Shown: positions 2,931 through 37,400 of the stretch, piece after piece | Layout of the letters: each line of letters begins with the position of its first letter | How positions within the stretch are numbered: position 1 is the first letter of the stretch | Source: an uncultured virus (IMG/VR IMGVR_UViG_3300002138_000037) | Taxonomy: Duplodnaviria > Heunggongvirae > Uroviricota > Caudoviricetes | Virus record (IMG/VR): IMGVR_UViG_3300002138_000037 | Span: 1-64,000 of that record | Strand: one strand, 5' to 3' | DNA: 64,000 nucleotides | Made by a program: the position numbers and the translations under genes | Notes under the pieces: generated by a model | The model's database searches: none | Told to the model about the DNA's origin: nothing | The model's input: the letters and a program-made list of their open reading frames with translations, nothing else

Positions 2931-2954
2931 GTTGTAAATAGTTAATATAATCCA

Positions 2955-2982
2955 TTGACATTCAACGGGTTTAATATACAGT
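2955..2982 (+). promoter_or_regulatory. early sigma70-type promoter, leaderless
   Basis: TTGACA-16 bp-TACAGT, ATG 2989 after 6 nt. Confidence 0.75.
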
Positions 2983-2988
2983 AACACC

Positions 2989-3168: not shown

Positions 3169-3169
3169 G

Positions 3170-3550
3170 GTGAGGGATGGGGAGGGGGATGTCAACAGGG
3201 TTAACCCTCCCCACCATATGGGGGGGAGAGGGTGTCTTAAAGTGGGGAGGTACCACTTCTGGATAGGGGGGGGCCCGACCCCTCTATTGACGCCATGTCG
3301 GCGCCACACACACGGCATTTTTTTCTTTGGGGCCTTTTTGTCCCGATAACACTGTTTTTATAGGCAAACACACGGCATTTTTTTCTCTGGGGCACTTTTC
3401 TTGCAATTATAGCGTTTTCTAGCCTTCCTATATACAATTATTTTATTGTGGGGCACTTTTCTTGCAATTATAGCGTTTTCCTATCCATCTTTTTGACTAA
3501 TTGACCTTCTTTTTCAAAAAAACACGGGGGCAATTTTTTTCTTGGGGTGT
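3170..3550. repeat. GC-rich non-coding tract with hairpins and ~60-bp-period direct repeats
   Basis: G-runs; inverted repeats at 3204-3233, 3240-3258, 3263-3287; ACACACGGCATTTTTTTCTnTGGGGC at 3308 and 3368; TGGGGCACTTTTCTTGCAATTATAGCGTTTTC at 3388 and 3449. Confidence 0.8.
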
Positions 3551-12235: not shown

Positions 12236-13082
12236 ACCCGGCTCTAGGAATAAGGTTACTTCTAAAAAGACATTCAAATCGGCTAAAATTAAAAATGTAA
12301 ATAGGGTTCAGATAGTCGATGTTTGTGAAGAAAAACCGAAAGTAACGCCGGTGCCCACACCTACACCAGTAGTTGAGGTTCCAGTGAAGAAGGTTCGTAA
12401 ACCGTCCTTTGAAAAAATGTATTTTACCAAAGATACGGAAGACTCCATTGTATTGTATAATAAAGAAGAAGATATTGATAAACGCAATGAAATCTTCAAC
12501 ACCAAGATAAAGTTTGCATTTGAAAAGTTGGTGGAGAATATCTTTAACACATTCAAATTCAGTTACTTCGATGTAGGTCCATTGGAAGTACAAAAAGAAA
12601 CGCTTTCACATTTGGTGGCTAACATTCATAAATATGAAGAAGGTAAAGGTAAGGCATTTTCATATTTCAGTATCATTGCGAAGAACTACCTGATATTCAA
12701 TAACAATTCCAATTACAAACGATATAACCAACAAGTTGATATCAGTGAAGAGAATGAAGCGAACACCGTTAGATTACAATCTGAGGATACACATCACAAA
12801 GAAATGGAAACTAAACAATTCATCACAATGATGGTGGATTATTGGGATAGAAATCTCACCGAGATATTCACCAAGAAGAAAGATTTGAAAATTGCTGAGG
12901 CAGTCGTCGAGTTATTCCGTAATAGTGATCGAATAGACCACTTCAATAAGAAGGCATTATATCTTTATATCCGTGAAATTTCTTCGTGCAAAACGCAGCA
13001 GATTACAAAAGTGATAAATAAGATGAAAGAGTATCAGAATAAGATTACTAAGCTCTATGTCGAAAACGGTTCCCTTAGTTAA
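12186..13082 (+). CDS. phage late sigma factor (gp55-like)
   Basis: YF..E.SIVLYN, KLVENI, region-2-like KAFSYFSIIAKNYLI; basic low-complexity N-terminus. Confidence 0.7.
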   Translation: MTTMIQKTKTKKTVKNKPGSRNKVTSKKTFKSAKIKNVNRVQIVDVCEEKPKVTPVPTPTPVVEVPVKKVRKPSFEKMYFTKDTEDSIVLYNKEEDIDKRNEIFNTKIKFAFEKLVENIFNTFKFSYFDVGPLEVQKETLSHLVANIHKYEEGKGKAFSYFSIIAKNYLIFNNNSNYKRYNQQVDISEENEANTVRLQSEDTHHKEMETKQFITMMVDYWDRNLTEIFTKKKDLKIAEAVVELFRNSDRIDHFNKKALYLYIREISSCKTQQITKVINKMKEYQNKITKLYVENGSLS

Positions 13083-13803
13083 TAAATATTACACCTATCA
13101 ATTGTCACATCCCCTTACAGACGAAGTATTTTACGTCGGTAAGGGGTGTGGTAATAGAATGTATAAACATGAAAAAGATGTGAGGTTGGGAAAAGTTCCT
13201 AACAAGACAAACTATAAGTTGTTTAATAAGATTTATGACCTAGTTAAAAAAGGTTTGTCTCCAAAGTATGAAAAGTTGATTGAGAACGTCGTGGAAATAG
13301 AGGCGTTATCATTAGAATCCGCATTTATAGATTTCTACGGTATGGAAAATTTGTGCAATTATTTGAAAAGTTGGTCGGGGGTTTCCGAAAGACGTCTGGA
13401 AACACGTATAAAACAAAGTTTGGCAAATAGGGGTGAAAAATCCTATATGTATGGTAAACCGAAGACAAAAAAACAAAAAGAGAAAAATCGTATCGCTCAT
13501 ACAGGAATTAATAATGCACGTTACATTAAAACAAAATATGCCTTTTACAACGAATCAATGGGAATAGTCGAAACTCTTACACCATATGATTTTAGAAAAA
13601 AATACAAAGTTGATAGTGGTGGGTTAAATTTGTTTTTAAATGGTAAAAGACTTTCTATAAAAGGTTGGACACTTGGTAAGGTTTCCTTAGAAGAAATAGA
13701 AAATGAACGACGTGAAAAAATTCGTCAAAAAACCAAAGGTGTTGCCAAATCGGAGTCACATCGGAAGAATTTGTGGAAAAATCGTAAAAGGCGGTCAATC
13801 TGA
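13057..13803 (+). CDS. GIY-YIG (LEM-3-like) homing endonuclease with NUMOD3-like repeats
   Basis: YTYQL..FYVGKG..R..H, E.AL.LE..I..YG..NL.N; MYGKPKT and KGVAKSESHR repeats. Confidence 0.8.
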   Translation: MSKTVPLVNKYYTYQLSHPLTDEVFYVGKGCGNRMYKHEKDVRLGKVPNKTNYKLFNKIYDLVKKGLSPKYEKLIENVVEIEALSLESAFIDFYGMENLCNYLKSWSGVSERRLETRIKQSLANRGEKSYMYGKPKTKKQKEKNRIAHTGINNARYIKTKYAFYNESMGIVETLTPYDFRKKYKVDSGGLNLFLNGKRLSIKGWTLGKVSLEEIENERREKIRQKTKGVAKSESHRKNLWKNRKRRSI

Positions 13804-13814
13804 TATTTATTGTT

Positions 13815-14195
13815 ATGGAAACTATCGAATTTGAAATATATAAAGGTAAGTCGTTCTCATCACTCTGTAAAGAAATTGTAGTTAATCAGAATGAAAAGAA
13901 GGACCAAATTGATATTTTAATCAGTGAACTCCGTCCGTTGATTAAAAGTGTGAACGACGCAATGGTTATCGTGCCACTTATTCGTGATTATCTCGACACT
14001 GGAATTAAAAACGATGAACAACTTGTAAAATTAGCTGCGGTTATACAACGTATTTTATCCAAACAAAATGAGGGTGGAGATGGTGACCAATCATTTGCCA
14101 TAACTGACGAGGAACGTAAACAGTTGTTGGATGCGATGCAGGATGTTCAAAAAAATTCCACCGAGTTAGTAAAAGTTAAGGAAATCAAATCATGA
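13815..14195 (+). CDS. helical hypothetical protein
   Basis: 126 aa, late motif at 13804. Confidence 0.75.
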   Translation: METIEFEIYKGKSFSSLCKEIVVNQNEKKDQIDILISELRPLIKSVNDAMVIVPLIRDYLDTGIKNDEQLVKLAAVIQRILSKQNEGGDGDQSFAITDEERKQLLDAMQDVQKNSTELVKVKEIKS

Positions 14196-15817
14196 ATTCA
14201 TCTGGTCGAACAATATTAAATAATTCAACCGATGATGTAAACAAATTATCCACTTTTAGAGATGTCAAATATCTCCAAGTGGGTGAAAACATGCCGCAGT
14301 TCGAACCGGGGGTTGTTTTGGACATCATTCTCGACGACAAACATCCTCTGTTTGCAAATGGGGAAATGGGAAACATTACCATTCCATCGGAATATCCTAA
14401 AAATTACAATAATCTTCCAGCAAGTTCTTCGGATAAAAGTTATTATCCAATTGGAACTGTGTTAGTGAGACTATGTTATACACAACAAAAGGTTGAGAAG
14501 GAAAATTTGATTTGGGCAATTCCAATTGATAGTAGTTTTACAACATATCCAGTATTAAATGAAGTGGTTAATGTAGTTTATATCTTGGATAAATTTTACT
14601 ATACAAACAAAATCAACACCAAAAATGACAACAATACCTCCGCCGATTTTAGATACGAACAGACATATGGTAAGAAAATATCCAATCGGAGTTATTCCGG
14701 TTCCACAACGGTTGTTGAATTACGTGGGCCAGAATCTCGACTCGATTCAACGAATGATAGATTCTATTCGGGGTTCCGTGGTATTTTGGGAAATTACTTC
14801 TGGTTTAATGATAAAATTCGAAATCTCAAACATTATGAGGGAGATTCAATTTTTGAAAGTCGGTTTGGTCAAAGTATAAGAATGGGGGCCTACGACGATA
14901 ATCGTAAAAATGATAAAGGGGTTTACGACAACTATAAAAGTGACAAGGAAGAGGTTGGTGGTGGCAATCCCATGATTTTGATTCGTAATAGACAAAGACC
15001 TATTGCGAAAGATAATACACAACAATTACATCCACTCTTAAATAAGATAGATGATGTTAACTCTTCACCAAATGAGAAGAATGTTGGTGGATATTTAATT
15101 GAAGATATAAACAACGATGGTAGTTCTATTCACATAACAAGTGGATTGACGGTATCAAGATTTAAAACAACGTGTTACAAAAAATACTTTTCAACAAATT
15201 CTGGTGAGGAACAGGTCAAATTTAATCCACCAAACGCAACCACGTTTAAAATGCCCGAATTGAGTGGGGATCAAATTGTAATACATAGTGATAGATTAAT
15301 TTTTGCGTCTAGGTTTGGGGAGACGTTACATTTTTCGAAGAAACGTTATATGGTAACAACTGATAGTGAATATACTGTCGATGCCCATAATCAAATAGTT
15401 TTTACCACAAATACCAAGACGGTGTTTAACTCACCAGCTATATATTTGGGAGAACATAATAATACAAACGAACCAGCGGTATTGGGTCAGACTTTAGCTG
15501 ATTGGTTATACGACTTATGTTTATGGTTGGAGGAACATACCCACTGGCACGAACACACCCATGAAGATGTGGGTGTTCCGACTCCTAAAAATACCCAAGT
15601 TCCGGTGCAAATCAGACAATTACGTAGTTTACGTGATAAGATTCATACCATTATGAGTCGTCGAGTATTTTTGACGGGTGGGGGTTATGCTCCGGGTGGA
15701 GATGGTGGAGAAATTGTAGATGGTGTTCCATCAACTAAAATAAACACATTCTCTGGAACGGGTGTTCCCGGTGGATGGCCAGCCTCAAATAGAAGAGAAA
15801 GTCCGAGAAAATTTTAA
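14192..15817 (+). CDS. baseplate central spike/hub protein (gp5/gpV-like)
   Basis: OB-like N-terminus (YPVLNEVV), EGD..ESRFGQSIR, beta-repeat region, HTHWHEHTH tip; upstream of gp25. Confidence 0.7.
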   Translation: MNSSGRTILNNSTDDVNKLSTFRDVKYLQVGENMPQFEPGVVLDIILDDKHPLFANGEMGNITIPSEYPKNYNNLPASSSDKSYYPIGTVLVRLCYTQQKVEKENLIWAIPIDSSFTTYPVLNEVVNVVYILDKFYYTNKINTKNDNNTSADFRYEQTYGKKISNRSYSGSTTVVELRGPESRLDSTNDRFYSGFRGILGNYFWFNDKIRNLKHYEGDSIFESRFGQSIRMGAYDDNRKNDKGVYDNYKSDKEEVGGGNPMILIRNRQRPIAKDNTQQLHPLLNKIDDVNSSPNEKNVGGYLIEDINNDGSSIHITSGLTVSRFKTTCYKKYFSTNSGEEQVKFNPPNATTFKMPELSGDQIVIHSDRLIFASRFGETLHFSKKRYMVTTDSEYTVDAHNQIVFTTNTKTVFNSPAIYLGEHNNTNEPAVLGQTLADWLYDLCLWLEEHTHWHEHTHEDVGVPTPKNTQVPVQIRQLRSLRDKIHTIMSRRVFLTGGGYAPGGDGGEIVDGVPSTKINTFSGTGVPGGWPASNRRESPRKF

Positions 15818-16248: not shown

Positions 16249-16668
16249 ATGGCCACCCGAACATCAGCATCATATGCACCTATTGGGTTAGAAGTTCCTT
16301 TTATAAGGGGAACTGGTGGGTATTTTCAGCAAACATTTGATACAAACAATCAAGTGAAACAAAATCTCATGAATTTTTTAAAGACCAAGAAGGGTGAACG
16401 CCGAATGTCACCGGAATTTGGAACAAAGTTGTATGAGCTGGTTTTTGAACAAAAAACGGATAATTTGAACGAAATTGCTAAAAATATCCTTTTTGAAGAA
16501 ATCTCATATTGGATTCCAGAGGTAAGTATTGATGAAATTGACATTATTAATGTTGAAAACCCCGTAGGAGATGATAATTATAAACTGAGAATATCTGTGT
16601 CGTTTACTATCAAACAGACGAAAACTGAAGATTCGGTAACATTTGACTTACAAAGTGTCAATATATAA
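16249..16668 (+). CDS. gp25: baseplate wedge subunit, gp25/GPW family
   Basis: QVKQNL..L.TKKGERRMSPEFGT.L..LVFE..WIPEV. Confidence 0.9.
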   Translation: MATRTSASYAPIGLEVPFIRGTGGYFQQTFDTNNQVKQNLMNFLKTKKGERRMSPEFGTKLYELVFEQKTDNLNEIAKNILFEEISYWIPEVSIDEIDIINVENPVGDDNYKLRISVSFTIKQTKTEDSVTFDLQSVNI

Positions 16669-16670
16669 TT

Positions 16671-18635
16671 ATGGCAACCGTATTAGATAAAAATTTTAAA
16701 CCTCAATCAAGAGAGGTAAAATATCTTGGACGAGATTTTGGTCAATTGAAACAAGGATTGATTGAGTTCTCTAAACAATACTATCCAAGAAGTTACAAAG
16801 ATTTTAGTGATGCAGCACCGGGCACAATGTTTATCGACATGGCTGCGTATGTTGGTGATGTTTTATCTTTTTACATTGATTATCAATACAAAGAAGGATT
16901 GATTAATTTTGCAGAAGAACGTAAGAATGTTATTCAACTGGCTAAGTATTTAGGATACATCTCCAAACCTACTAAACCCGCGATAACAACTTTAGATGCG
17001 TATATCATAGTTCCATCAAAACGATTATCCGACGGCACATTCGAACCAGATACGAGATATGCTATGCGAGTGAGGGAGGGTATGGAAGTATTATCCTCAA
17101 ATAGAGCTGCGTTTATAACCACAGAAACTCTTGATTTTTCCATTGACAGTGTAACGTCACCCCGAACCGACGAAGTGTTCTCACGAAACGATGTAGGAGA
17201 ACCGGAGTTTTATCTTTTAAGAAAATCCACCAAAGCTTATTCCGGTAAAATTATTACACGGGAATTCAATGTTACCAGTCAAAACCCAAATCTTCGAGTG
17301 GAATTGGCTGAAACGAATGTTATTAAGGTGATTAGCATAATTGACGCGGATAACAACAATTGGTATCAGGTTGATTATCTTGCCCAAGATTTAGTGGAGT
17401 TGCCGGTTGAAAACAACCAATTAAATTTTGAAACATTTTCTCAATATCGTTCATCCGTACCTAACATATTGAAATACTTGCGAACCAATCGACGTTATAC
17501 TATTGATGTAGACGAAAATAACAAAACGTATATACAATTTGGACCATCTACGGATAGTTTGGAAGAGGAAATTTTAATACCTAATTCAGAGTTGTTGGGT
17601 GTAGGATTTGCCAATATCAGTAAATATAATTTGACGTTGGATCCAACCGCATTCGTCAATTCTAATTCTTATGGATTATCACCATTCAATACAACTCTAA
17701 CGGTCAAATATATTATTGGTGGGGGAGTAGAATCAAACGCAAACGTTGGGGATATTACCACTATCAGTAAAGTTGCTTTCGATGAGGTTGAAGAATATTT
17801 ACCATCCGAATTAAATTTGGTAAATACCATCAAAAATAGTTTACGTGTTGAAAACTCCACATCAGCTACCGGTGGTGCGGGTGAAGAAAGTATTTTGGAA
17901 ATCAAACAAAATGCAATTTCAAACTTTGCGACACAAAATAGAATGGTGACTAAAGAAGATTATATTGCGAGAACATTGAGTATGCCAGCGGAATTTGGTA
18001 AGGTATCTAAAGTCCATGTGATAACGGAAAATGATTTATATACCAACAATACGACGTATATTCAAGGATTAATTGATGAAAACAACAACATCGTTGTTGA
18101 TGAAAAAAATAAAGACTATCGTAAAGTAAATTTGGAAGGCGTAAATCCATTGGGTATAAATCTCTATGTTCTTGCATACGACGATAATGGCAATTTAACT
18201 CCGGTTAACGAAGCACTTGCACACAATTTACGGAATTATCTATCGAAATACCGAATGATGTCAGATAGAATAAATATCATTGATGGATTCGTCGTTAACA
18301 TCGGTGTCGATTTTACAATTTTGACGTATTCCACTTACAACAAAAAAGAAGTATTGACGGAGTGTATAGACTCCATTAAAAACTTTTTCAATTCCGAATC
18401 ATGGCAATTTTCACAACCAATTAACATCGGTCAATTGGAATTAGAAATTGCTAAAATTGAAGGAGTTCAATCAGTTGCTCATCTGGAAATCGAGAATTTG
18501 GCTGGGGATAATTATTCAATTTATGAATATGATTTACCATCCGCAACAAAGAATAAAATTATATACCCACCAATCGACCCAACTATTTTTGAAGTAAAAT
18601 ATCCAGACGTCGATATTAGAGGTAAAGTATTGTAA
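16671..18635 (+). CDS. gp6: baseplate wedge subunit, gp6/baseplate-J family
   Basis: RDF..LK..L, DF....PG.MFIDMAAYVGDVLSFY.D, ATGGAGEES, QNRMVTKEDY. Confidence 0.9.
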   Translation: MATVLDKNFKPQSREVKYLGRDFGQLKQGLIEFSKQYYPRSYKDFSDAAPGTMFIDMAAYVGDVLSFYIDYQYKEGLINFAEERKNVIQLAKYLGYISKPTKPAITTLDAYIIVPSKRLSDGTFEPDTRYAMRVREGMEVLSSNRAAFITTETLDFSIDSVTSPRTDEVFSRNDVGEPEFYLLRKSTKAYSGKIITREFNVTSQNPNLRVELAETNVIKVISIIDADNNNWYQVDYLAQDLVELPVENNQLNFETFSQYRSSVPNILKYLRTNRRYTIDVDENNKTYIQFGPSTDSLEEEILIPNSELLGVGFANISKYNLTLDPTAFVNSNSYGLSPFNTTLTVKYIIGGGVESNANVGDITTISKVAFDEVEEYLPSELNLVNTIKNSLRVENSTSATGGAGEESILEIKQNAISNFATQNRMVTKEDYIARTLSMPAEFGKVSKVHVITENDLYTNNTTYIQGLIDENNNIVVDEKNKDYRKVNLEGVNPLGINLYVLAYDDNGNLTPVNEALAHNLRNYLSKYRMMSDRINIIDGFVVNIGVDFTILTYSTYNKKEVLTECIDSIKNFFNSESWQFSQPINIGQLELEIAKIEGVQSVAHLEIENLAGDNYSIYEYDLPSATKNKIIYPPIDPTIFEVKYPDVDIRGKVL

Positions 18636-18636
18636 T

Positions 18637-18930
18637 ATGCATAAATTCATATTTCCATCATCCGACACATTCATTTGTAATGACCCGGATTATTATTTGA
18701 AAAATTTCGGACGAGATGAAATTTTGGAAATAAATGCGTTTACTCGTAATGTTGTTACGTTTGTTGTAACTGGTTCAAGTGAAATTTCGAGAGATAGGTT
18801 GAATTTACAAGTTTTATCTTTCAGTGGGTATTTTTCGGGTTCCCTGACTGGTTCGGGAGATATAACAAGTGGGTCGGCATTTATTTCAGGTAGTGGTATG
18901 TGGATAGAACCAGATACGGGAAGTTGTTAA
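18637..18930 (+). CDS. structural protein N-terminal module A
   Basis: MHKFIFPSSDTFI..KNFGRDEILEI then FSGS-type repeats; paralog of next ORF. Confidence 0.75.
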   Translation: MHKFIFPSSDTFICNDPDYYLKNFGRDEILEINAFTRNVVTFVVTGSSEISRDRLNLQVLSFSGYFSGSLTGSGDITSGSAFISGSGMWIEPDTGSC

Positions 18931-18934
18931 TCAT

Positions 18935-19285
18935 ATGCATCATTTTATATATTGTCAAAAAGATACTTACGTAATGAACTATCCCGATTACGTTGAGAAA
19001 AATTTTGCGTTGGATCCATATATTGAAGTCGGTGCTATAAACAAATTAATTATAGGTTATATTACCGCGTCGGTGGCAAGAACATCGGGTTCAAACCAAT
19101 TGGTATCTTCTCGTATGGATAATTTCACCGGAACCTTCACCGGTAGTATTGATTGTGCAACGGGTAGTGTCAATGGATTTATATTATGTGACCAAATTGT
19201 TGCGGTTGAGTTTGACTTAGTTGACGACTCTGAGAATCAAATGATTGATGATTCTGAAAATACTCTGATAGTTTCGTCTACTTGA
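18935..19285 (+). CDS. structural protein N-terminal module B
   Basis: MHHFIYCQKDTYV..KNFALDPYIEV, FTGS repeats, C-terminal LVDDSENQMIDDSENTLI duplication. Confidence 0.75.
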   Translation: MHHFIYCQKDTYVMNYPDYVEKNFALDPYIEVGAINKLIIGYITASVARTSGSNQLVSSRMDNFTGTFTGSIDCATGSVNGFILCDQIVAVEFDLVDDSENQMIDDSENTLIVSST

Positions 19286-19300
19286 TATTATTTATTACAT

Positions 19301-20545
19301 ATGTCATTATCATTCACAGTTGATTATTTTTCCGGTATTTCGAGTAGCAATTACGTATCCGGTAGTGCATCGGGGTCATTTAGTGGTTCAATATGCGGGT
19401 TCACTGGTAGTTTGGAGAATTTCACGGGTATTTTATCGGGGTATATATCGGGGTCTTATGATTATCTTTTAAACCGTTACGTTACGGAGTATAAAACCTT
19501 CATAAAACGTTCTATATTGAAGTTCGATTTGACCACCATTAGTGAATCTATTGCTAATGGAAGTGTGGTAAATCCAAAATTCATTCTCAATCTCCGAACG
19601 GTGGAGTCGAAGGAAATTGGGGTAGATTATAAAATCTATGCATACCCAATAAGTCAAAGTTGGGATATGGGAACGGGTATTTTTGCTGCGGGTGGTGGCA
19701 ATACAGGAGTAAATTGGTCTTATCGAGAATATCCAGATACTTCAAGTGTTTGGTATCCAAATATTGATTTAGATACAAATTTATCCGGGGCAAATTACTT
19801 GGATACTGCGTCGGTTGCGGTGTTTGCTCGGGGAGGGGGAACTTGGTATTACTCGGCACCAGTCAGCTGTTCCAATGATCCAAGTCAAAGTTTTTGTTCC
19901 GCCGTTTCCGGGGCTAGTTACATATGCAGTCAATCTTTCAGTTACCAATCCTCAGATATAGAACTTGATGTTACTCGTATTTGCCAAGCGTGGATTTGTG
20001 GTTGTATTCCAAACGAAGGAATTATACTACTCACTTCCGATGAATTGAATGAAGATGCGACAAGTAATCTCAAGTTTTTCGGTCGTGAGACGAATACCAT
20101 TTATTCTCCATATTTAGACGTTAAATGGGATGACTCATCCTTTGTAACGGCCAGTTTATCACCAGTAACCGCAAGTCTCGGTGTGAATGTTTCCATAAAA
20201 GGTATAAAAAAGGAATATAAGAGTGGGGCTAAGGTGAAATTTACGGTATCTGCACGTGAACAAAACCCACTAAAACGATTTGTGTCTGCACAGACTGCTT
20301 ATTTAACTCCAAAATACCTACCAACATCAAGTTTCTACGCTATTAAAGACAATGAAAGTTCCGAAACCATTATTGACTTTGATGATTATACTAAATTGAG
20401 TTGTGATGAATATGGAAATTATTTCTATTTAGATACGACGGGATTGGCTCAGGAGAGATATTATCGAATACTCATTAAAACTGAGTTAGACGACGGTTCT
20501 ATTCAATTATTTGATAATGGTAGTGTTTTTAAAATCATAAGATAA
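19301..20545 (+). CDS. baseplate-region structural protein (DNRLRE-like core lacking its usual N-terminus)
   Basis: Begins with FSGS repeats, then RSILKFDL, PISQSWDMGTG, FFGRETNTIYSPYLDVKWDD; own TATTTAT at 19289. Confidence 0.75.
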   Translation: MSLSFTVDYFSGISSSNYVSGSASGSFSGSICGFTGSLENFTGILSGYISGSYDYLLNRYVTEYKTFIKRSILKFDLTTISESIANGSVVNPKFILNLRTVESKEIGVDYKIYAYPISQSWDMGTGIFAAGGGNTGVNWSYREYPDTSSVWYPNIDLDTNLSGANYLDTASVAVFARGGGTWYYSAPVSCSNDPSQSFCSAVSGASYICSQSFSYQSSDIELDVTRICQAWICGCIPNEGIILLTSDELNEDATSNLKFFGRETNTIYSPYLDVKWDDSSFVTASLSPVTASLGVNVSIKGIKKEYKSGAKVKFTVSAREQNPLKRFVSAQTAYLTPKYLPTSSFYAIKDNESSETIIDFDDYTKLSCDEYGNYFYLDTTGLAQERYYRILIKTELDDGSIQLFDNGSVFKIIR

Positions 20546-20546
20546 T

Positions 20547-21017
20547 ATGGCAGATTTGAATAAATTTGGTGACGAAATCAATTCGTTTAGAAACGGAACA
20601 TTATTGTACACATACAGTTACAATTCCGTTGGTAATCTCTTTTTTAAACAAGAATCTGACGTATTTAATCAACAATTTTTAAAGTTGTCGTTGAATAATC
20701 TTGAGTATAAAGATGATAAATTGGCCATTCTATATCCACTTGCATTTGAAGAATTCGTAGATGTGACTCCGACGAACAATACACCCGATACTCAAAATGA
20801 TGATTCTCAACTAACTATACAGATGTTGGAGAACACTATTACAAACCTCCAATATAAGGTAACCGAAACCAATAACGCGGTAGATGAGATAAATCGGTTG
20901 GAATCTCAATTGAACGCTACTAGAGAATTGATTATTCAACTTCGTATTGATAGGGGAGAGGGTCAATCTAAGTCTGATTTTAATGTTGAGTTTCCTTATA
21001 CCCCAAAAACATTCTAA
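20547..21017 (+). CDS. hypothetical coiled-coil structural protein
   Basis: 156-aa ORF in baseplate operon. Confidence 0.7.
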   Translation: MADLNKFGDEINSFRNGTLLYTYSYNSVGNLFFKQESDVFNQQFLKLSLNNLEYKDDKLAILYPLAFEEFVDVTPTNNTPDTQNDDSQLTIQMLENTITNLQYKVTETNNAVDEINRLESQLNATRELIIQLRIDRGEGQSKSDFNVEFPYTPKTF

Positions 21018-21064: not shown

Positions 21065-24000
21065 ATGTTCAATATATTAAAAGAATCACCCAATGAGATA
21101 AATGACGTAGGCTATATAAATTCGAGAGAGAATGTATTGTTTACGAGTTCATCTACACAAGAATATTTCTTTGGTAATTCGACAAAAGATGTAATTGAGA
21201 TTGGTGTCTATAATAGTCAAAAACAACCAATCACCTCATCCACTTTGGTTGGCTTTACAACCACTACAAAGTTTTTTTACCGATATGAGGATATTGATAA
21301 CAATGTATTCCGAGATTACTACTTTCCACCAAATTCCAATTTGATTCAAAATGGAAATCGGGATGTCTTAATTTCTGTTAAAGATATTGTTGAACAGAAT
21401 TCTATCACCGATGCCAATTTCTATCTATCGTTGACTCCTATATCGAATTTTTTCTCACAGACGAATCCTTTAATAATCAAAGAGATAAGCAATTCTCGTA
21501 GAGAAATAAAATTAGTAAAATCGTTCAATAGTGAAAATGTAGTCAATAACATTTCCGTTACTTTTGATGGTAATCAAATTTTATTTGATGGAAATAAATC
21601 CTTGAGTTTGAAATCGGGAACAGTCTACAATCTAAACTTTGTCAGTGGGGATATAACACTTGTCAAATTTAGTAAAATAAAGGATGGTTCTTTTAATGGT
21701 GGAGTTGAATATGTCAATAATGTAATTTACAAACCATCCACACGACAAATCATACTGGACACTACGGAAGATTTTCCAGTTACATTATTTGCGTATAATA
21801 AAAATCACCGAAATAGTGGTGTGGAAATTAATTTTCCAAGCCGCGTATCCGATTCTGATTTTAAGTTAAATAGTGAATTTCTATCATTGGGTTATAACAC
21901 ATTTATCAACAATCGAATTTACGATGATTTTGAATATTATGTAAACACATTCAACATCACCGATGTTTATAATCTAACAAAGGATAATTTCAAATCCGAA
22001 ATCAATTCTCTAAAACAATTATTTGGTTTGGCGGAAAATGATTCTGATGGTGTGTTTGAAATTTTACGTAGTGTGTTTTACGGTGAAACTATTTACGACG
22101 GTGAGATTCAAAAAAGCATTTCTTACCTCGGTATAAAAGATTATCTACTAAATTATCTCAAATTCAACTATGAATTTGTAAATACCTTTAACAATTTTAA
22201 TACATCGGTCAACGAAATAAATTTTGCCGCATGTGATAAAAAATTGTTACGTCGGTTGGCATCCTATAAATCCCCATCCAATTTTCCAGCGGATGTTAGA
22301 TTGCAATATGCGGATTCATTAAAGTATCTATATGGTGTATTTAATGTATTTCTAAAAAACACTCTCACAACGATTGAATCGGATTTCAAAAATAAGTTCA
22401 AGAGTCCACTTAAAAATGCGTTGAAAATTAATGGTCAAATTTTTCCAATACTGACTCTTAAAATAAATGGAAATGAACTTTGGTTGAAATTGAAAGATGG
22501 TATTCCATCCGAATATGTCATTGGAGATTTCTCAGATATAGTCAACATTTCCATTGAACCTTTCTTCCAAACTATTAACTTTGAGAGTAGTGTTAAAAAG
22601 AATACAATCAAATTAAATAAACCCAATTTCAGCATTGATATAAACGAACTATCTGCACGAACTTTGGGAACGAAGTATTACACGTCTGATGAATTGGAAG
22701 TGAATCGTAACATCAAAAATAAAATTGATGTCAACAAGAAGATTGCAAATATCAACGTAGATTATACTGATTTTAGCAAATTTGTCATCTTCTCATCGGC
22801 TAACTTACGAGTCAAAATATTTAAAAATAAAATATCAAGAATAACGGTTTTAGAAGAAGAAAATGATGAATTGGAATCCTTTGATCCAACTAATTCAGCA
22901 ACCAATGATAAAATTGGGGTGTATAACAAAATTGAGTTAAACAATAAAGAAATTGATTCGATATTTGCAAGTTTTGATGGTTATGAATCATATCTCTACA
23001 AGACTGGATATTTCATTTACGATACTTCATCTGAGACATTTGTTGAATCGACAACGGATTCTAGTGCGTCTAGTTATGTTGCCACATTGGATACCGATAG
23101 TGCTGAGTATGACATCAACAATCGTGATAGTCTTATAAACAACACCCCGGAGTATGTATATAATGACACTGATAACGATGAGTATCTCAAGTTCTTGAGT
23201 ATGGTTGGTCATCACTTTGATAACATCTATCTTTACATTTCCAATATCGGTATTTACAAAAATATCGGCGATGATACTTCAACGGGATTGACTGGAAAGT
23301 TAATCACGAATATTTTGAATGGATTTGGCTTTAAAGTTCCACCGGGACTAAGTGGAACATTGGAATATTCCGAAGTGGATGAATTATACCTCAATAGTTC
23401 AGAATCCAATAAGTATAACAACTCAATTTCCGTTGATGATAAAACGAAAACTATATGGAAGAGATTATTAACTAATTTACCATCAATATATAAAAGTAAA
23501 GGAACCGAAGAGTGTCTGAGACAGATATTTGCGATATATGGTATCCCAAACAATCTTATTCTGGTGAAAGAATTTGGTGGGGGATATACGCAAAATGAAA
23601 TTAGTTCATCATATACCATTGAAGAAAAGGAATATTTATTGGAATTCATTGGTTCCGAGGAAGAACGGGTGGAGTTTGTAAATTTAGAACCATTTAAATC
23701 GGTTGACTTCAAATTGTATATTGATACCACAAAATATCCAACCTCTCAGGTCATTGTTCCTATCCATAGTTCATTCTCCGGTGGTGACCAAATTTATTCG
23801 TTTGGATTCATAAAAATAAGCGATACGTTGGGTAGTTTATACTTCGTTATAAAAAGTGGTGATGAATCATTTGCGGCGGTGACGGAACCTTTCTACATGT
23901 TCAATGGTGAAGTGATGAGTCTTTTACTTAGAAAGAATCCAATTGATTCAAATTTTGAAACTGCATCTGATGACAATTTGGTTCCAACTCGATACGACAT

Positions 24001-25720
24001 ATGTGTTCATAGAAACGAATATTGTCTGGAACCAATTGATAAAAAGTTTAGTTTCTATCTTAGTGGATCCTTGAATACCGCATTTGACAATGTTGGTGGA
24101 TTAACTTATTTCGGAAATGTAGACACTAATTTAAACTTGATTTCGGAATTGGGTAACATTCCTACGGCAAATCAAAGTGTTTTATTGGAAGATGAAGTTG
24201 ATGACTTGGATTTGATTGCTGAAAATGACCAAGAGAATTTCTTCTTGACTGAAATCGGTGGTTATGAAGTGGTCAAGTTCTACGGATGTTTGGATAAGTT
24301 TGTATTCCAATCAGTTGCGTTATCGGATGAGAATTTCTACATCAAGTGTAAGAATTTTAACTCTTACTACCAAGGACAACCATCATCAAGTTATGAAGAA
24401 ATTTTATTCCGGTTCCACTTTGGAATTCCATTTGATGTAAGTTATAGTTCTTCACAACTTACTGGATTTAGAGTTGATAATGCCAATAGATATTACAGTT
24501 CGGCTTACGCATTGATGTATAATTTTACGGGAAGCAACATCTCCGATTCTTTCGATACATCGAGTTGTGTAAGTCAGTCCTATTCACTATTCCCACACCA
24601 AAGCCGTGAATTTGACATCAGTAATGAATATTTCACAGGAGAGGTTGGACCAAGTCGGTTTGAAAATGATAAAGTAGAATATACATCATTGACCACGTTG
24701 GATAATACATTATCCCCAACAAATACACGGACCTCGAAATCTAAATACAATTACTACAGTGATGCTAATAAATTGGGTATATTCCTATCACCAATACACG
24801 AACGAAATAAAGACATATTGAATTTCTTCGGGGATTATGAAATCGTATCAAGTATTTCCGACCCAAGAGAAAAATTCGGACGTAAATATTTGGGACTAGA
24901 AACCTTACGGAAAAACTATTATGGGGAAAACTACATCAATCGTATTTTATTCAATGAGTTATTTACGATATACAAAATTTTCGTAGATAAAAGCATTTTT
25001 GATACATTGAAAAATGTCTTGCCTGCTAGAAATAGAGTTTATAAAGGAATATTGGTTGAACCAACTATTTTGGAGAGAAGTCGTATTGAAGAAAAAGCAG
25101 TGTTTATAGGTGAAATTCAAACTTTGGATGCAATTATAGACCTGAAAGAAATTATCGCGGATATTGATCAGGGTGAATTAATATCTCTTAACGCATCGGA
25201 AATACCCGTGGCTGCAACTTCCAATGTAAACTCGACGTTTGTGACCAATACATTCTCAGCGTTCGAAAATATCCAAGATACCCCCGATAAGTATATGGTC
25301 AGTATATTTCCAAATACTTTTGGATATGTGGAATTCGACGGACAGACATACAAAGCTTATACTTTGAACGAAAAACGAACATTGAGTTATTCCGATGATG
25401 GGGTTGATTCAAATAACGTGGTAAAAGACTTTAAAAAGGTCACGTTAGTTATCAGTGGTAGTTCGTTTGTAACGTCTTCTGCATATACAACTTTAACAGA
25501 TGTGGAGAATTTCCGTCATATCAGCCGTAAGAATATTCCATTTCGTAAAGAATTGTATTTTGATACCGGTAGTTTGGATACTGGACTGGTTTATACCGGT
25601 AAATCGAGACAAACCAAGTTTACCACGATAAACGAACCAAATGAATCAGATAGAGAACCTATAATAACAATACCAGTCGGTGCATCCATCAAAAACATGG
25701 AAGGTGGTATTACAGTTTAA
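21065..25720 (+). CDS. very large baseplate structural protein (gp7-like core)
   Basis: 1551 aa; FLSMVGHHFDNI, IWKRLLTNLPSIYKSKGT..L..I..YGIP..KEFGG motif. Confidence 0.75.
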   Translation: MFNILKESPNEINDVGYINSRENVLFTSSSTQEYFFGNSTKDVIEIGVYNSQKQPITSSTLVGFTTTTKFFYRYEDIDNNVFRDYYFPPNSNLIQNGNRDVLISVKDIVEQNSITDANFYLSLTPISNFFSQTNPLIIKEISNSRREIKLVKSFNSENVVNNISVTFDGNQILFDGNKSLSLKSGTVYNLNFVSGDITLVKFSKIKDGSFNGGVEYVNNVIYKPSTRQIILDTTEDFPVTLFAYNKNHRNSGVEINFPSRVSDSDFKLNSEFLSLGYNTFINNRIYDDFEYYVNTFNITDVYNLTKDNFKSEINSLKQLFGLAENDSDGVFEILRSVFYGETIYDGEIQKSISYLGIKDYLLNYLKFNYEFVNTFNNFNTSVNEINFAACDKKLLRRLASYKSPSNFPADVRLQYADSLKYLYGVFNVFLKNTLTTIESDFKNKFKSPLKNALKINGQIFPILTLKINGNELWLKLKDGIPSEYVIGDFSDIVNISIEPFFQTINFESSVKKNTIKLNKPNFSIDINELSARTLGTKYYTSDELEVNRNIKNKIDVNKKIANINVDYTDFSKFVIFSSANLRVKIFKNKISRITVLEEENDELESFDPTNSATNDKIGVYNKIELNNKEIDSIFASFDGYESYLYKTGYFIYDTSSETFVESTTDSSASSYVATLDTDSAEYDINNRDSLINNTPEYVYNDTDNDEYLKFLSMVGHHFDNIYLYISNIGIYKNIGDDTSTGLTGKLITNILNGFGFKVPPGLSGTLEYSEVDELYLNSSESNKYNNSISVDDKTKTIWKRLLTNLPSIYKSKGTEECLRQIFAIYGIPNNLILVKEFGGGYTQNEISSSYTIEEKEYLLEFIGSEEERVEFVNLEPFKSVDFKLYIDTTKYPTSQVIVPIHSSFSGGDQIYSFGFIKISDTLGSLYFVIKSGDESFAAVTEPFYMFNGEVMSLLLRKNPIDSNFETASDDNLVPTRYDICVHRNEYCLEPIDKKFSFYLSGSLNTAFDNVGGLTYFGNVDTNLNLISELGNIPTANQSVLLEDEVDDLDLIAENDQENFFLTEIGGYEVVKFYGCLDKFVFQSVALSDENFYIKCKNFNSYYQGQPSSSYEEILFRFHFGIPFDVSYSSSQLTGFRVDNANRYYSSAYALMYNFTGSNISDSFDTSSCVSQSYSLFPHQSREFDISNEYFTGEVGPSRFENDKVEYTSLTTLDNTLSPTNTRTSKSKYNYYSDANKLGIFLSPIHERNKDILNFFGDYEIVSSISDPREKFGRKYLGLETLRKNYYGENYINRILFNELFTIYKIFVDKSIFDTLKNVLPARNRVYKGILVEPTILERSRIEEKAVFIGEIQTLDAIIDLKEIIADIDQGELISLNASEIPVAATSNVNSTFVTNTFSAFENIQDTPDKYMVSIFPNTFGYVEFDGQTYKAYTLNEKRTLSYSDDGVDSNNVVKDFKKVTLVISGSSFVTSSAYTTLTDVENFRHISRKNIPFRKELYFDTGSLDTGLVYTGKSRQTKFTTINEPNESDREPIITIPVGASIKNMEGGITV

Positions 25721-33496: not shown

Positions 33497-34450
33497 ATGT
33501 TACATCAGGAAGAGATTGTATCAGTTTTAAACAAAGCGTTAAATCAGAAGGCTAAAATTAGAAAAGGCACTGATGCGGTTTATTTCTGCCCTAAATGTAA
33601 ACATTACAAACGAAAGTTGGAAGTCAACTTAATTACAGGTAAGTATAATTGTTGGTCATGTGATTTTTCCGGGTTAACTCTTCGATCTCTTTTCAAAAAA
33701 CTCAACGTTTCCCGTGAATTATACCGACTAGTTGATATAAAATCGACGCATAATATCGACGTGGATATTGATGTCGTCAATTTACGAAATCTATTCTCAC
33801 CAAAAGAAAATGTGGCTGAGATTGTCAATCTTCCAAAAGATTATAGACCACTATCCGAATATCACAACTCTCCAGAATATAGAAATGCGTTGAAATATTT
33901 GAAAGCAAGGAACGTATCTGATTACGATATTCATCGTTACCAAATTGGATATTGTGAAGATGGTGATTATCGTCAACGAATCATCGTTCCTTCATACGAT
34001 GGTGATAACAATTTGAATTTTTTCGTGGGTCGTAGTTATTATGACCAATGTTCTCTAAAGTATAAGAACTATGAGGGAAGTAAAAACGTGATTGGGTTTG
34101 AATCTTTGGTGGACTTCACACAGGAAATAACATTGGTTGAAGGTTCTTTTGATGCAATGGCGATTAGATATAATTGTGTTCCGTTATTTGGGAAAACATT
34201 GTCCAGAAAACTACGAGAATCGTTGATATTAAATGGAGTAACGTCGGTAAACGTGGTATTAGATAACGATGCGTTGTCAGAATGTCTCAATATTGTGACA
34301 TTCTTAATGAAAAACAACATTAAAACAAAGTGTGTTGTCATGACGGAGAAAGACCCGTCAAAACTTGGATTTGAAAAAACTTGGGAGATTATCAACAATA
34401 CAAAATTTATCGACTTCGATGAAATGTGTAAGTTAAAAATGAATTTATGA
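33497..34450 (+). CDS. DNA primase (Zn ribbon plus TOPRIM)
   Basis: CPKC..CWSC, RIIVP, VEGSFDA, LDND; leaderless promoter TTGACC(33462)-17 bp-TAGTTT. Confidence 0.88.
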   Translation: MLHQEEIVSVLNKALNQKAKIRKGTDAVYFCPKCKHYKRKLEVNLITGKYNCWSCDFSGLTLRSLFKKLNVSRELYRLVDIKSTHNIDVDIDVVNLRNLFSPKENVAEIVNLPKDYRPLSEYHNSPEYRNALKYLKARNVSDYDIHRYQIGYCEDGDYRQRIIVPSYDGDNNLNFFVGRSYYDQCSLKYKNYEGSKNVIGFESLVDFTQEITLVEGSFDAMAIRYNCVPLFGKTLSRKLRESLILNGVTSVNVVLDNDALSECLNIVTFLMKNNIKTKCVVMTEKDPSKLGFEKTWEIINNTKFIDFDEMCKLKMNL

Positions 34451-37400
34451 ACGTGCAAAAATTGAACTGTGATGTGACGGAGTTTATTGGAATATTTCAC
34501 ATTGCGGATATTCACATCCGATTAACAAAAAGACACGATGAATATCTCGACGTGTTTGAAAGGTTATATGAGGTCGTTGCGAAGACCCCGGAAAATACAT
34601 GTGTCGCAATATTGGGTGATTTATTTCACTCTAAATCAAATCTCAGTCCCGAATGTGTGGGTATAGCTTCTGATTTCTTACGAAGACTTGCTGATTTGCG
34701 TCCGACTATATTGATTGCGGGAAATCACGACGCAACTTTGACCAACAAGAGTCGAATGGATAGTTTGAGTCCGATTGTCAATGCTATCAATCACAAAAAT
34801 CTATTCTACTTGAAGGATACTGGTATTTATATCTTAGGAGACATTGTATTCAACCACATGTCCGTGTTCGATCCCGTAGAGAGTTATATCAGAGCCACCG
34901 ACATTCCTAAAATATACACCAATCAAGCAAGACACGTCATTGCGTTGTATCATGGAGCTGTTCATGATGCAGTCTCCGACGTCGGGTATCGAATTAACAA
35001 TCAATCGGTGACCGCAAATCTATTTGATGGACATGATATTGTCTTATTGGGGGATATTCACAAATATCAGACACTTGAAATTCCAGATTCCGATACGAAA
35101 ATTGTATATGTTGGTAGTTTAATCCAACAAAATCACGGAGAATCTCTTGACAGCCATGGGTATGTATTGTGGAATTTAAAACAACGAATACACAAACAAT
35201 TTGATATTGGTAATGAAAGGGGTTTCTATACTATCGACATTGATAAGGGACACCTTAAAACGGATTTATCAAATCTTCCTAAGAAAGTCAAATTACGAGT
35301 GAGATGTAATGACTCAGATTATTTAGAAATCAAAGCTGTCATTGATGAAATTCGTAAACGTTGTGAGGTAGAACATTTGGTGTATTTAAAATCCGCTAGT
35401 GGAACCACACCAAACTCAGCTGCGGTCAGTGTGGAAGAACTTTCATTGGCTGATTTGAATTCTGTGGAACATCAGAACAAGTTAATTAAAGAATATCTTA
35501 TGGCTCATACATCGGATAAAGAGGTTACCGATGATATGTATGAGACGATTTTTCAAATCAATACACAACAGAATCAGTTGATTGACAAAGATAAATTGGT
35601 CCGAAACATTCGATGGAAACCTAAAAAATTCGAGTTTAGTAACATGTTTAGTTACGGTGAGGATAACGTCATTGATTTTACAAAGATGAAAGATGTAATT
35701 GGATTGTTTGCATCCAATGCTTCGGGAAAATCCTCGTTAATGTCTGCATTGAGTTTTTGTATATTTGATAAATGTGATAGAGCATTTAAAGCAACGCACA
35801 TTTTAAATTCACAAAAGGCTACATTCCACTGTAAATTCAACTTTGAAATAGATAACACCGATTACTTCATTGAACGAAATGGTAAGTCGGATAAAAAGGG
35901 AAATGTAAAAGTGGATGTCAAATTCTGGAAAGAGGAAAATGGTTCCATAATCGAATTAAACGGAGAGGCTCGTCGTAGCACCAATGATTTAATCCGTGAT
36001 TTTGTGGGTAGTTATGAGGATTTCATCTTAACGGTGTTATCCATCCAAAATAACAAATCGGGTAATTTTGTTGATATGGGACAGTCCGAACGTAAAGATT
36101 TGTTATCACAATTTATGGGATTGAATATCTTCGATATACTACACAGTAGTGCGTCGGAGACACTTAAAGAATTGAATAATGATGTCAAGTTATACCACCG
36201 TTATGATAACGGTGTGTCGATTGACGATTTGAGTGAATCCATTGATGGATTCAAATTAGATTTGGTGACTTTAAATGAAGAGTCGGATAGACTGGTTGGT
36301 GAAAAGGAAAAATTGAATTCTTCGTTATTTGAAGAAACCACCAAGTTGATTAAAATTGAGAACAATATTCCGAAGAATATTACATCCCTCGAATCGACAC
36401 GTATTTCAGTATCTACAACCATTGCAAAATCGGAGAGTCAGATTGTAACATTGCAGGAATCTTTGAAGTTGGAATCAATTGAGTTGGAAAATACCAAAGA
36501 AGAATTGAAATCTATTGACACCGACGACGTTTCACAAAAATTCAATCAACTAAAAACGTTGCGAGAACAATTACAATCTATTAAACACATCATTGAGACG
36601 AAGAAGATTTTCATCACTGCTAAATTAGATAAAATCAATAGATTACATAACCACCAATATGATCCAAACTGCAAATATTGTGTCAACAATTCATTTGTTA
36701 AAGATGCGTTGGATGCGGAAAGCTCCCTCGACAATGATAAGGTAGAGGCTAATGATTTAGTCATCAATTATGAGGATAAGAAAAAACACATTGAGTCATT
36801 GGTGTATGTCGAAGAATTGCAACGAAAGTGTGATTTATTAAAAGTCAAGTTGAATAACTGCGACAGACGTATCATCTCTATAAACCGAGAAATTACATCT
36901 TTGGAGTCAACCGTCCAGTCGAACAGTGTTCACCTAACTAAGTTGGATAACGACATCAAACTCTATTACGACAATGAATCGAATATCAAATATAACCTCG
37001 AAGTGGAGTTGAAAGTAGGTAAAATACAACAGGAGATTAGAAACACCGATATATTAATCAAACAGAATAATACCAAGATAATCAACTTGTCTGCAAATTT
37101 GAGTGGATATGAAAAGAACATGCAGGAGAAAATTGTCAACCGAGATAAGATGAAAAAAACCGAATCTGATTTGAAGTTATACGATTTATACGTCAAATCG
37201 GTTTCCCGTGACGGTATTCCATTTGATTTAATATCCAAGGCTGTCCCGGTTATTGAAAGTGACGTCAATGAAATTTTATCTCAGATTGTGGATTTCTCGG
37301 TAAATATAGAAACCGATGGAAAAAATGTCGTCACCAATCTGGTGTATAGTGATAAGAAGTGGCCGTTAGAAATGGCGAGTGGGTTGGAGAAGTTCTTAAC

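Follow-up and report, generated by a model that had tools for sequence, protein, structure and literature searches.

The window analysed here is a stretch of 64,000 nucleotides from the record of an uncultured Caudoviricetes virus (IMG/VR IMGVR_UViG_3300002138_000037; 74 kb, estimated completeness 27%). On its plus strand, a series of closely spaced genes follows two recognizable baseplate wedge genes:

16249..16668, + strand: gp25/W-like baseplate wedge gene, 139 aa (Pfam PF04965 GPW_gp25, E 7.5e-13, 48.5 bits, cutoff 27.2)
16671..18635, + strand: gp6/J-like baseplate wedge subunit, 654 aa (PHROG 10646, E 6.6e-17, and PHROG 219, E 1.4e-16, both "baseplate wedge subunit")
18637..18930, + strand: gene A, 97 aa, N-terminal piece, paralog of B
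18935..19285, + strand: gene B, 116 aa, N-terminal piece, paralog of A
19301..20545, + strand: gene C, 414 aa, body with a DNRLRE/CBM96 domain minus its first strands
20547..21017, + strand: conserved downstream gene, 156 aa, predicted coiled coil, only weak family matches
21065..25720, + strand: large neighbour gene, 1551 aa, no family match

The open reading frames of A, B and C (18637–18930, 18935–19285 and 19301–20545) are present on the plus strand as an earlier, sequence-only reading had described them. The stop codon of the gp6-like gene lies 1 nt upstream of the ATG of A. The order gp25-like gene, gp6-like gene, then a gene of the A/B/C family is also found in Microcystis phage Mel-JY01, Flavobacterium phage immuto, LR756508 and related viral loci, and in those related loci that were inspected, synteny places relatives of the 156-aa gene behind whichever form, split or fused, is present. 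It is this gene order by which A, B and C are assigned to the baseplate, where the protomers discussed below would have their seat. Searches with A, B and C against Pfam and PHROG gave no family, an alignment of C gave no match among PDB sequences at E up to 1, and structure searches, in which a likeness to T4 gp7 or P2 gpI was at issue, returned no baseplate protein among the matches listed. The 1551-aa gene found no match in Pfam, PHROG and NCBIfam; judged by its position, it is probably structural. Between 16000 and 21500 we counted 25 promoter and 5 terminator sites, as compared to 23.6 and 3.5 expected from shuffled sequence. Since these counts are close to expectation, no internal signals can be claimed for this region. 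The public runs listed for the locus include no RNA run.

The body and its two N-terminal pieces

Gene C encodes a Gly/Ser-rich arm (residues 1–66, 19301–19498; the descending arm of the hairpin described below), a DNRLRE/CBM96 domain minus its first strands (residues 55–274, 19463–20122), and a C-terminal Ig-like domain (residues ~290 to 414). C matches the NCBIfam model DNRLRE_dom (NF033679) with an E value of 1.3e-11 and 44.8 bits (cutoff 34), covering only positions 19–163 of the 164 in the profile; roughly the first 18 are absent. C therefore does not hold a complete DNRLRE domain in one polypeptide, and the missing strands are encoded in A and B. A Pfam-A scan of C returned nothing at E up to 0.1; for some fused homologs, PF24517 is precomputed.

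Inspection of the alignments by eye assigns residues 1–35 of A to the missing first strands of the sandwich, residues ~36–82 to the ascending arm of a Gly/Ser-rich hairpin, and residues 83–97 to a short tail. This tail ends in a conserved Cys in the A rows from six loci, the window included; at L028, a more distant locus, the A-type piece has a different last residue. B shares the N-terminal strands and the ascending arm with A; its tail is about 30 residues long and contains an acidic D-D-S-E-N motif in tandem, from about 19205 on. The alignment of the tails confirmed the earlier claim that this acidic tip is restricted to B. The proposed paralogy of A and B also holds: BLASTP gives 35% identity across an aligned stretch of 81 residues (E 1e-14), well above chance, and the N-terminal motif quoted for them is common to both. 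Gly/Ser-rich repeats are present in A, B and C alike, and C runs on into the strand R-S-I-L-K-F-D-L, again as described. The repeats place a glycine at every fourth position, with a lag-4 autocorrelation of 0.36–0.52 in residues 1–60 of C and in four of the five fused-homolog inserts tested (the fifth, P0080, gives 0.20).

B retains every residue that is invariant in the alignment of N-terminal pieces. On the other hand, neither the G-G-I-C segment nor the P-E-D-F tail, both of which are retained in five relatives, is present in B of the window, so that B may be a degenerate member of its type here. The B tail is longer in relatives, and Ig-like domains stand in its place in other clades. At locus L008, a Lys codon occupies the usual ATG position of B. 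Neither A nor B alone matches NF033679 at E up to 1, and a word-based search with B as query recovered only B itself. We rejected a likeness between the B tail and a strand of the Ig-like domain of C (BLASTP E 0.81, not significant).

The sequence-only reading had taken the N-terminal segment and the body to be one chain normally, and the homologs bear this out. With an E limit of 0.001, the search found 1725 homologs of C. The 120 homologs listed comprise 82 fused chains (472–631 aa), 2 compact chains (391 aa), 32 C-type proteins and 4 fragments; all 84 single chains begin with an A/B-type N-terminus, and in the fused chains a Gly/Ser-rich insert connects this N-terminus to the C body. One fused form of 541 aa is abundant in marine samples. 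The two compact homologs (P0059 and P0002) match NF033679 from profile position 1–2 onward, beginning at their own residue 10. To the fused homolog P0035, A aligns over residues 1–76 with 43% identity (BLASTP, E 1e-14) and B over residues 1–71 with 28% identity (E 8e-6). C is 50% identical to P0035 in a local alignment that extends from residue 64 to 472 with a 15-residue gap before ~85; residues 64 onward belong to the repetitive Gly/Ser region, and the clean match starts at ~85. A and C thus map to adjacent, non-overlapping parts of P0035 (1–76 and, cleanly, ~85–472). At the profile level, hhalign relates A/B to the fused form with a probability of 99.4% (E 4.7e-21). In a tree of 122 rows, all 32 split, 2 fused and 2 compact forms fall into one clade with an SH-aLRT support of 100. 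In a comparison of the N-terminal pieces, those of the fused chains P0035 and L020 cluster with an A-type piece (support 98/86), and the A-type and B-type pieces are separate old lineages. Among the homologs and related records seen, there is no functional annotation for this protein.

The AlphaFold2 model of P0035 contains one long hairpin with strands 28–84 and 89–133 and a turn at 85–88 (pLDDT block means 56–73 in the insert), and that of the homolog P0077 contains strands 30–101 and 105–178 with a turn at 102–104 (block means 74–88 over residues 61–140); both are models of monomers of a probably oligomeric protein, and the P0035 insert is of moderate confidence. Since A covers P0035 residues 1–76, the clean match to C begins at ~85, and the turn lies at 85–88, the break between A and C is predicted to fall within a few residues of the turn. 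This result agrees with the proposal that a beta-ribbon stalk was cut at its tip. Residues 1..329 of the P0035 model superimpose on 8wab_B (VIA-align: Z 14.7, rmsd 2.8, 169 aligned of 176) and 7vbo_A (Z 12.3, rmsd 3.5, 166 aligned of 182), a CBM96-type sandwich fold seen on the model of a natural fused homolog and not on the proteins of the window. The C-terminal domain of the same model matches Ig/MG-like domains with Z 8–9. These domains were resolved by the wide VIA-align search; a whole-chain Foldseek search against the PDB was uninformative (TM ~0.15 over the full length), and a BFVD search returned uncharacterized viral proteins only.

Recurrence and conservation of the split

A gene divided into two paralogous N-terminal pieces and a body is a confirmed observation. 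Without a single difference, A, B and the B–C junction are covered by two contigs, one of 55.8 kb from run X1, which is possibly the source sample, and one of 860 nt from run X2. Two further studies (X3 and X4) contribute short contigs that are identical across the A–B junction. Because independent contigs agree base for base, we can eliminate assembly or sequencing error as the cause of the split. The same layout recurs in 23 contigs from many samples.

In the window, B is in frame with C, and only one TGA codon and 15 nt intervene, an arrangement that could suggest a B–C fusion by readthrough. However, this arrangement is not conserved: in relatives, the gap between B and C is 18–30 nt long with several stops, or the two genes are in different frames. 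This variation between loci rules out readthrough. A pseudogene or a decaying tandem duplicate is ruled out by conservation and purifying selection. Synonymous sites are saturated in many pairs, yet the frames of A, B and C are all open, and in unsaturated pairs dN/dS is well below 1 (0.046–0.097 for A, 0.15–0.20 for B and 0.04–0.07 for C). A comparison of A, B and C for DNA repeats gave short, weak matches only. A triple tandem unit, as might be read from a 19-nt match between B and C (84%) that lies at nearly the spacing of the A-to-B starts (297 vs 298 nt), was discarded because the protein sequences lend no support to its register.

A, B and C are all present in 12 of 12 loci found by way of C. 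A profile of the N-terminal piece produced 113 matches, each representing a cluster at 50% identity; 53 of the 110 newly listed representatives are at most 150 aa long and without a body. Among 79 loci found with this profile, 23 contain two free N-terminal pieces and none contains one. Exactly two free pieces in 23 of 23 loci that have any establishes that the N-terminal half was duplicated, as the sequence-only reading had it, and that this duplication is old. In these 23 loci the B-type gene always adjoins A, upstream of C, and the spacing of the three genes is a tight 1–30 nt. One further contig (G001) carries a 693-aa C-type gene without N-terminal pieces; the contig is 9% complete and the gene lies 2.7 kb from its end, so the missing pieces are uninformative.

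The B-type piece of more distant relatives bears Ig-like He_PIG domains, which lengthen it by as much as about 600 residues. One such protein of 604 aa, from locus L028, contains three He_PIG stretches and another of 178 aa contains one He_PIG domain; a test of 7 larger N-piece proteins detected He_PIG in 4. Overall, the B-type cargo of relatives consists of one to five He_PIG stretches or of unknown domains. In some relatives, islands of extra genes are inserted between B and C.

Proposed completion of C by A or B

The claim that C pairs with B passed a controlled complex prediction. Three runs with B and residues 1–290 of C gave ipSAE values of 0.88, 0.86 and 0.87, as compared to 0.02 for the best of three controls, clearing a mark that 116 of 157 solved complexes attain, as do 2 of 215 mismatched pairs; as the halves of a split domain with a solved fold tend to pass by likeness, the known CBM96 structures (7vbo and 8wab) may carry this result, which speaks for fold completion and not for binding in the cell. 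The runs have at least 88% of contacts in common with a partner pLDDT of at least 62. The first strands of B are placed in the sandwich of C, and the predicted pairings (B 3–6 with C 271–274, B 11–15 with C 68–71, and B 62–72 with C 43–53) follow the register expected from the P0035 hairpin according to our own mapping through BLAST alignments. The distal parts, residues 1–42 of C and 73–116 of B, make no confident contacts in the model. A, the closest relative of the fused N-terminus, would dock on C as B is predicted to do.

These observations support the earlier interpretation overall and suggest the following explanation. The gene behind the gp6-like wedge gene would encode a two-domain protein in which a DNRLRE/CBM96-type beta-sandwich precedes an Ig-like domain. 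Strands two and three of the sandwich would, in this lineage, be separated by an inserted long beta-hairpin rich in Gly and Ser. In the clade of the window the gene is split, and the cut would lie at or near the tip of this hairpin. C has kept the descending arm and everything after it and lacks its own first strands, while A and B would each supply these strands plus an ascending arm. Either small protein could then complete C by fragment complementation, with the strands entering the sandwich and the arm zipping up antiparallel to that of C. We infer that three genes give rise to two subunit types, A·C and B·C, which would be alike except at the distal end of the stalk: a short Cys-terminated stub in one, an acidic tandem tail in the other, replaced by He_PIG Ig-like domains on the B-type piece of distant relatives. 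We give this explanation, a domain split at a hairpin tip with A or B completing C to form two protomer types, a probability of about 0.7.

The best-surviving alternative is that A and B are both obligate in a single hetero-oligomer of fixed composition, such as a C dimer capped once by each, so that there would be only one type of assembly. The gp6 protein occurs as two non-equivalent copies per wedge, which capping by A and B might mirror. This arrangement would explain why free N-terminal pieces come in twos and never singly, and why A-type and B-type pieces form distinct old lineages; the tight gene spacing and the lack of promoter or terminator excess over shuffles would fit equimolar co-expression. 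Yet the models offer a single slot for first strands per C, so that A and B should still compete at the level of the protomer, and the tail or cargo of B varies strongly between clades while A remains a constant stub, a pattern that fits variable decoration better. We consider a fixed hetero-oligomer unlikely.

Somewhat less likely still is that only A truly complements C and that B serves as an assembly factor, as a competitor that regulates maturation of C, or as a cap for another strand-deficient protein. The N-terminus of P0035 is closer to A than to B in identity, the fused N-termini cluster with the A-type piece, B evolves faster than A, and at L008 the start codon of B is lost. In addition, with the record about 27% complete, a further partner for A or B could sit outside the known sequence. 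However, B has kept all invariant residues of the N-terminal pieces, it docks on C in the models with high confidence and in the expected register, no second C-like gene is present in the 74-kb record, and B-type genes always occur beside A and upstream of C. A non-functional split, be it by sequencing or assembly error, decay of a tandem duplicate, or TGA readthrough, draws on the frame shared by B and C in the window, is already largely refuted by the evidence of the preceding section, and is very improbable.

The He_PIG domains on B-type pieces of more distant relatives suggest that the cut tip may be a display point for variable cargo. More tentatively, it could be an evolved plug-in socket, where opening the stalk at its distal end gave the ascending arm a free C-terminus to which any cargo can be attached, and where A competes for the slot to set a mixture of bare and decorated stalks on each baseplate. 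Host-facing tips could then be swapped by way of one small gene while the baseplate-embedded body remains untouched, and the extra-gene islands between B and C might supply accessory cargo parts. We regard this extension as possible, though doubtful.

Completion of C by either paralog would show how a virion part can diversify without duplication of the whole gene, and would provide a natural split-sandwich pair usable in protein engineering. It would also direct attention to the outer end of a stalk that had no annotation before, as the site of variation in what is presented by a large group of uncultured aquatic myoviruses, possibly for host recognition.

Comparison with known systems

Among the papers listed in literature searches, judged by title and abstract opening, none is relevant to DNRLRE domains in phages or to split baseplate genes with strand complementation. 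We found no paper joining CBM96 and the baseplate and none naming Mel-JY01; among the papers listed for immuto, none concerns structure as far as the listing shows. The window's case is of a kind already known, gene fission with fragment complementation, with two paralogous fragments for one slot. To our knowledge, small natural domains encoded by two genes with two paralogous, competing fragments are rare.

Single-chain homologs in cultured phages are the Mel-JY01 protein WWT39509.1 and the immuto protein QQO92077.1. Both are encoded directly after a gp6-like gene, are annotated as "hypothetical protein", and share 34–35% identity with residues 70–414 of C. Unlike C, each is one chain (386 and 369 aa, respectively) with the N-terminal strands attached and without a Gly/Ser hairpin.

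With the DNRLRE/CBM96 family (NF033679, PF24517), C shares a match above the NF033679 cutoff, and the P0035 model resembles 8wab_B and 7vbo_A, solved structures of a chondroitin-sulfate-binding and an alginate-binding CBM, respectively. In contrast to that family, the proteins of this lineage are predicted to carry a hairpin insert after the first strands, about 100 residues long in P0035 (28–133), about 150 in P0077 (30–178), and longer in the fused forms of 620–631 aa, judged by total length; moreover, the domain in the window is encoded by two genes. Known CBM96 modules occur as attachments of polysaccharide lyases rather than of phage baseplates.

In modular phage receptor-binding proteins, such as the branched tailspikes of Klebsiella phages, a conserved N-terminal anchor holds exchangeable distal domains. 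By analogy, the small conserved N-terminal piece described here may hold a variable distal part, and the cargo of the B-type pieces would fit this scheme. In our case, however, the anchor would be no separate docking domain but part of the fold of its partner, and A, a paralog without cargo, is invariably encoded next to it. Finally, completion of a strand-deficient sandwich or barrel by another polypeptide is familiar from chaperone-usher pili, where the next subunit donates the strand and a polymer is built, and from split GFP, an engineered example of split-protein complementation. The analogy implies no homology: in the system proposed here, a dedicated small gene product would complete one subunit, and two paralogs would compete for or share that role.

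Gene order and form of A, B and C

The viral record to which the window belongs (74,280 bp; CheckV completeness 27%) has the gene content of a large myovirus, with portal, major head, terminase, primase and baseplate genes. The region of interest reads as follows:

16249-16668 (+), gp25-like gene (PF04965, E 7.5e-13)
16671-18635 (+), gp6-like wedge gene (PHROG 219 and PHROG 10646)
18637-18930 (+), gene A, 97 aa
18935-19285 (+), gene B, 116 aa
19301-20545 (+), gene C, 414 aa

Packing is tight: 1 nt separates the gp6-like stop from the start of A, 4 nt separate A from B and 15 nt separate B from C. This gene order points to a baseplate assignment for all three. The ORFs are present as the sequence-only reading described them, and A and B are indeed paralogs (35% identity over 81 residues, E 1e-14). 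C scores above the cutoff of the DNRLRE domain model NF033679 from profile position 19 only, whereas the match of compact single-chain relatives begins at position 1-2. Thus, the initial strands of C's first domain are absent from C itself, and by sequence A and B look like these strands. The nearest fused homolog, P0035 (472 aa), aligns with A over residues 1-76 (43% identity), with B over residues 1-71 (28%) and with C over residues 64 to 472 (50%; local alignment with a 15-residue gap in the repetitive region); the clean match to C begins near residue 85. An A+B sequence profile matched the fused profile over its first 75 columns, at a probability of 99.4% (hhalign).

Forms among the 120 homologs listed of the 1725 found with C
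Split, C-type: 32; C-like start; 399-417 aa, apart from two longer ones (693 and 720 aa)
Fused: 82; 472-631 aa; a Gly/Ser-rich insert separates the A/B-type N-terminus from the body
Compact: 2; 391 aa; insert absent
Fragments: 4; incomplete

The fused and compact forms support the earlier claim that the A/B and C segments are normally one chain. The cultured Microcystis phage Mel-JY01 and Flavobacterium phage immuto also encode one chain (386 and 369 aa) directly after the gp6-like gene, as does an uncultured 484-kb phage at the same position (420 aa).

Several neighboring genes and variants were recorded alongside. A 541-aa protein of no known family (14192-15817, +) is encoded immediately upstream of the gp25-like gene and carries a His-rich H-x-H run close to its C-terminus; as a guess based on its position and on visual inspection of the sequence, it may be a hub or spike with a metal site. 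About 0.4 kb further upstream lies a GIY-YIG type homing-endonuclease-like gene (13057-13803, +; PF22945, E 1.5e-12). In a single 1066-aa ORF (34447-37647, +), an SbcD-like nuclease part is fused to an SbcC-like ATPase part (PHROG 100, residues 14-364; PHROG 77, residues 270-1066; Pfam Metallophos, SMC_N); in T4-like phages these are separate genes (gp47 and gp46). Among the relatives, P0034, P0037, L017, L023 and various of L060-L100 contain a second large Ser-rich insert within the sandwich domain (many 693-891 aa, one open frame >1500 aa), and the family accepts insertions in more than one loop. In L017, a 181-aa ADP-ribosyltransferase gene (2954-3499; PF18760 ART-PolyVal, E 4.2e-20) separates the gp6-like gene from the fused one (889 aa). 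Two fused-type genes are broken, in L053 (4501-6909) by one in-frame TAA in a conserved sandwich stretch and in L107 (3037-4924) by a frameshift some 58 codons into the gene; these interruptions may be sequencing errors, decay or recoding.

Predicted hairpin and docking

AlphaFold2 models of P0035 and a second fused homolog, P0077, were computed from alignments of natural homologs. In both, the insert is a single long two-stranded hairpin (P0035: mean pLDDT 73.8, strands 28-84 and 89-133; P0077: mean pLDDT 74.0, strands 30-101 and 105-178, block means 74-88 over residues 61-140). In the inserts, glycine recurs with a period of four residues. The A/C break falls at about residues 81-85 of P0035, beside the predicted turn at 85-88, in agreement with the proposal that a beta-ribbon was cut at its tip. 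Residues 1..329 of the P0035 model resemble solved carbohydrate-binding modules (8wab_B, Z 14.7; 7vbo_A, Z 12.3). Since the structure alignments begin at model residue 1-4, the N-terminal strands belong to that sandwich. The C-terminal domain is Ig-like (Z about 8-9).

Complex formation with C(1-290) was predicted for B, the less obvious partner than A, using alignments for both chains. Three runs gave ipSAE values of 0.88, 0.86 and 0.87 versus 0.02 for the best of three controls; among solved complexes, 116 of 157 attain the benchmark mark for this score, as do 2 of 215 mismatched pairs, and split-domain halves of a solved fold tend to pass it by likeness. The runs have at least 88% of contacts in common, with a partner pLDDT of at least 62. 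Predicted contacts place B 3-6 against C 271-274, B 11-15 and 30-32 against C 68-71, and B 62-72 against C 43-53, the last in the register expected from the P0035 hairpin (mapped through BLAST alignments). The distal ends (C 1-42, B 73-116) are without confident placement. Because A is close to the fused N-terminus, it would be expected to dock on C as well. That A and B each complete C, giving two protomer types as the sequence-only reading proposed, is our preferred interpretation, with a probability of roughly 0.7.

Conservation and origin of the split

N-piece profile scan of 79 loci
Two free N-pieces: 23 (20 then a C-type body, 3 ended by the contig edge)
One fused gene: 49
N-piece ORFs truncated at the end of the locus: 5
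Broken genes (L053, L107): 2

Exactly one free N-piece was found in none of these 79 loci. A fixed assembly of A, B and C is an unlikely alternative reading, and a separate role for B seems less probable still. A profile search with the N-piece across 1.84 billion cluster representatives gave 113 hits, 110 newly listed: 53 of at most 150 aa without a body, 43 with a body and 14 longer without one, the latter two classes including fragments or spurious entries. For pairs with unsaturated synonymous sites (L006, L007, L009), dN/dS was 0.046-0.097 (A), 0.15-0.20 (B) and 0.04-0.07 (C). Many other pairs are saturated at synonymous sites; all frames are nonetheless open. A, B and C occur in that order in each of the 12 viral loci recovered with C (70-100% identity in C). 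An artefactual split is very improbable. The reading frames and the B-C gap (15-30 nt) differ among loci, which rules out readthrough as a conserved mechanism. In L008, the usual ATG of B (around 3096) reads Lys and the open frame extends upstream to another ATG overlapping A; this B may start elsewhere or be silent.

A body tree (body columns only, 122 rows, quick IQ-TREE, rooted on three compact forms) unites all 32 split forms with two fused (P0035, L020) and two compact ones (P0058, P0059) in one clade (SH-aLRT 100), placed among several unresolved lineages, the rest of which are fused; the split label requires at least four changes. A second tree, computed from the first 85 residues, unites the B pieces of the window clade (support 100/99), on a long branch; in it, the N-termini of fused P0035 and L020 cluster with the A-type piece of L028 (98/86). 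One old split-plus-duplication, followed by A-C re-fusion in a few lineages, is the simplest reading of these trees; independent splits are a conceivable alternative, and A/B/C DNA similarity is too low for reconstructing the event.

The stalk tip and known systems

In L028, the gp6-like gene is followed by an A-type piece of 87 aa and then by a B-type piece of 604 aa that contains three Ig-like He_PIG stretches; another two genes separate the latter from C (body P0033). L069 has a 178-aa B-type piece with one He_PIG domain, then further genes. He_PIG was found in 4 of the 7 larger N-piece proteins tested. In the window clade, the tail of B closes with a tandem acidic motif, to which five relatives add a conserved aromatic end; the window's B is the shorter form. 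These differences in tail and cargo among B-type pieces indicate that the variable element lies where the ascending arm ends distally, at the stalk tip. A terminates in Cys in six loci, the window included; L028 has an A-type piece without this terminal Cys.

Some relatives (L028 3772-4894, L069 5371-6287, L027 523-2676) have additional genes in the interval from the B-type piece to C: Cys-rich ORFs of 264 and 119 aa, an ORF of 139 aa and signal-peptide-like proteins (161+ and 717 aa); the split site in these relatives looks like a variable island. Most C-type proteins have Cys at about residue 18, where the window's C has Tyr (comparison over 19301-19360). At the column of A's terminal Cys, a G-G-I-C segment is present in most B relatives and absent from the window's B, so that a possible disulfide or metal site at the stalk tip is not universal.

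Fission of a gene with complementation by the fragments has precedents, and so have modular virion tips. What is new is a sandwich domain split at the predicted tip of its hairpin insert and always accompanied by two N-fragments that would compete; the literature surveyed by title and abstract contained no earlier description of this arrangement.
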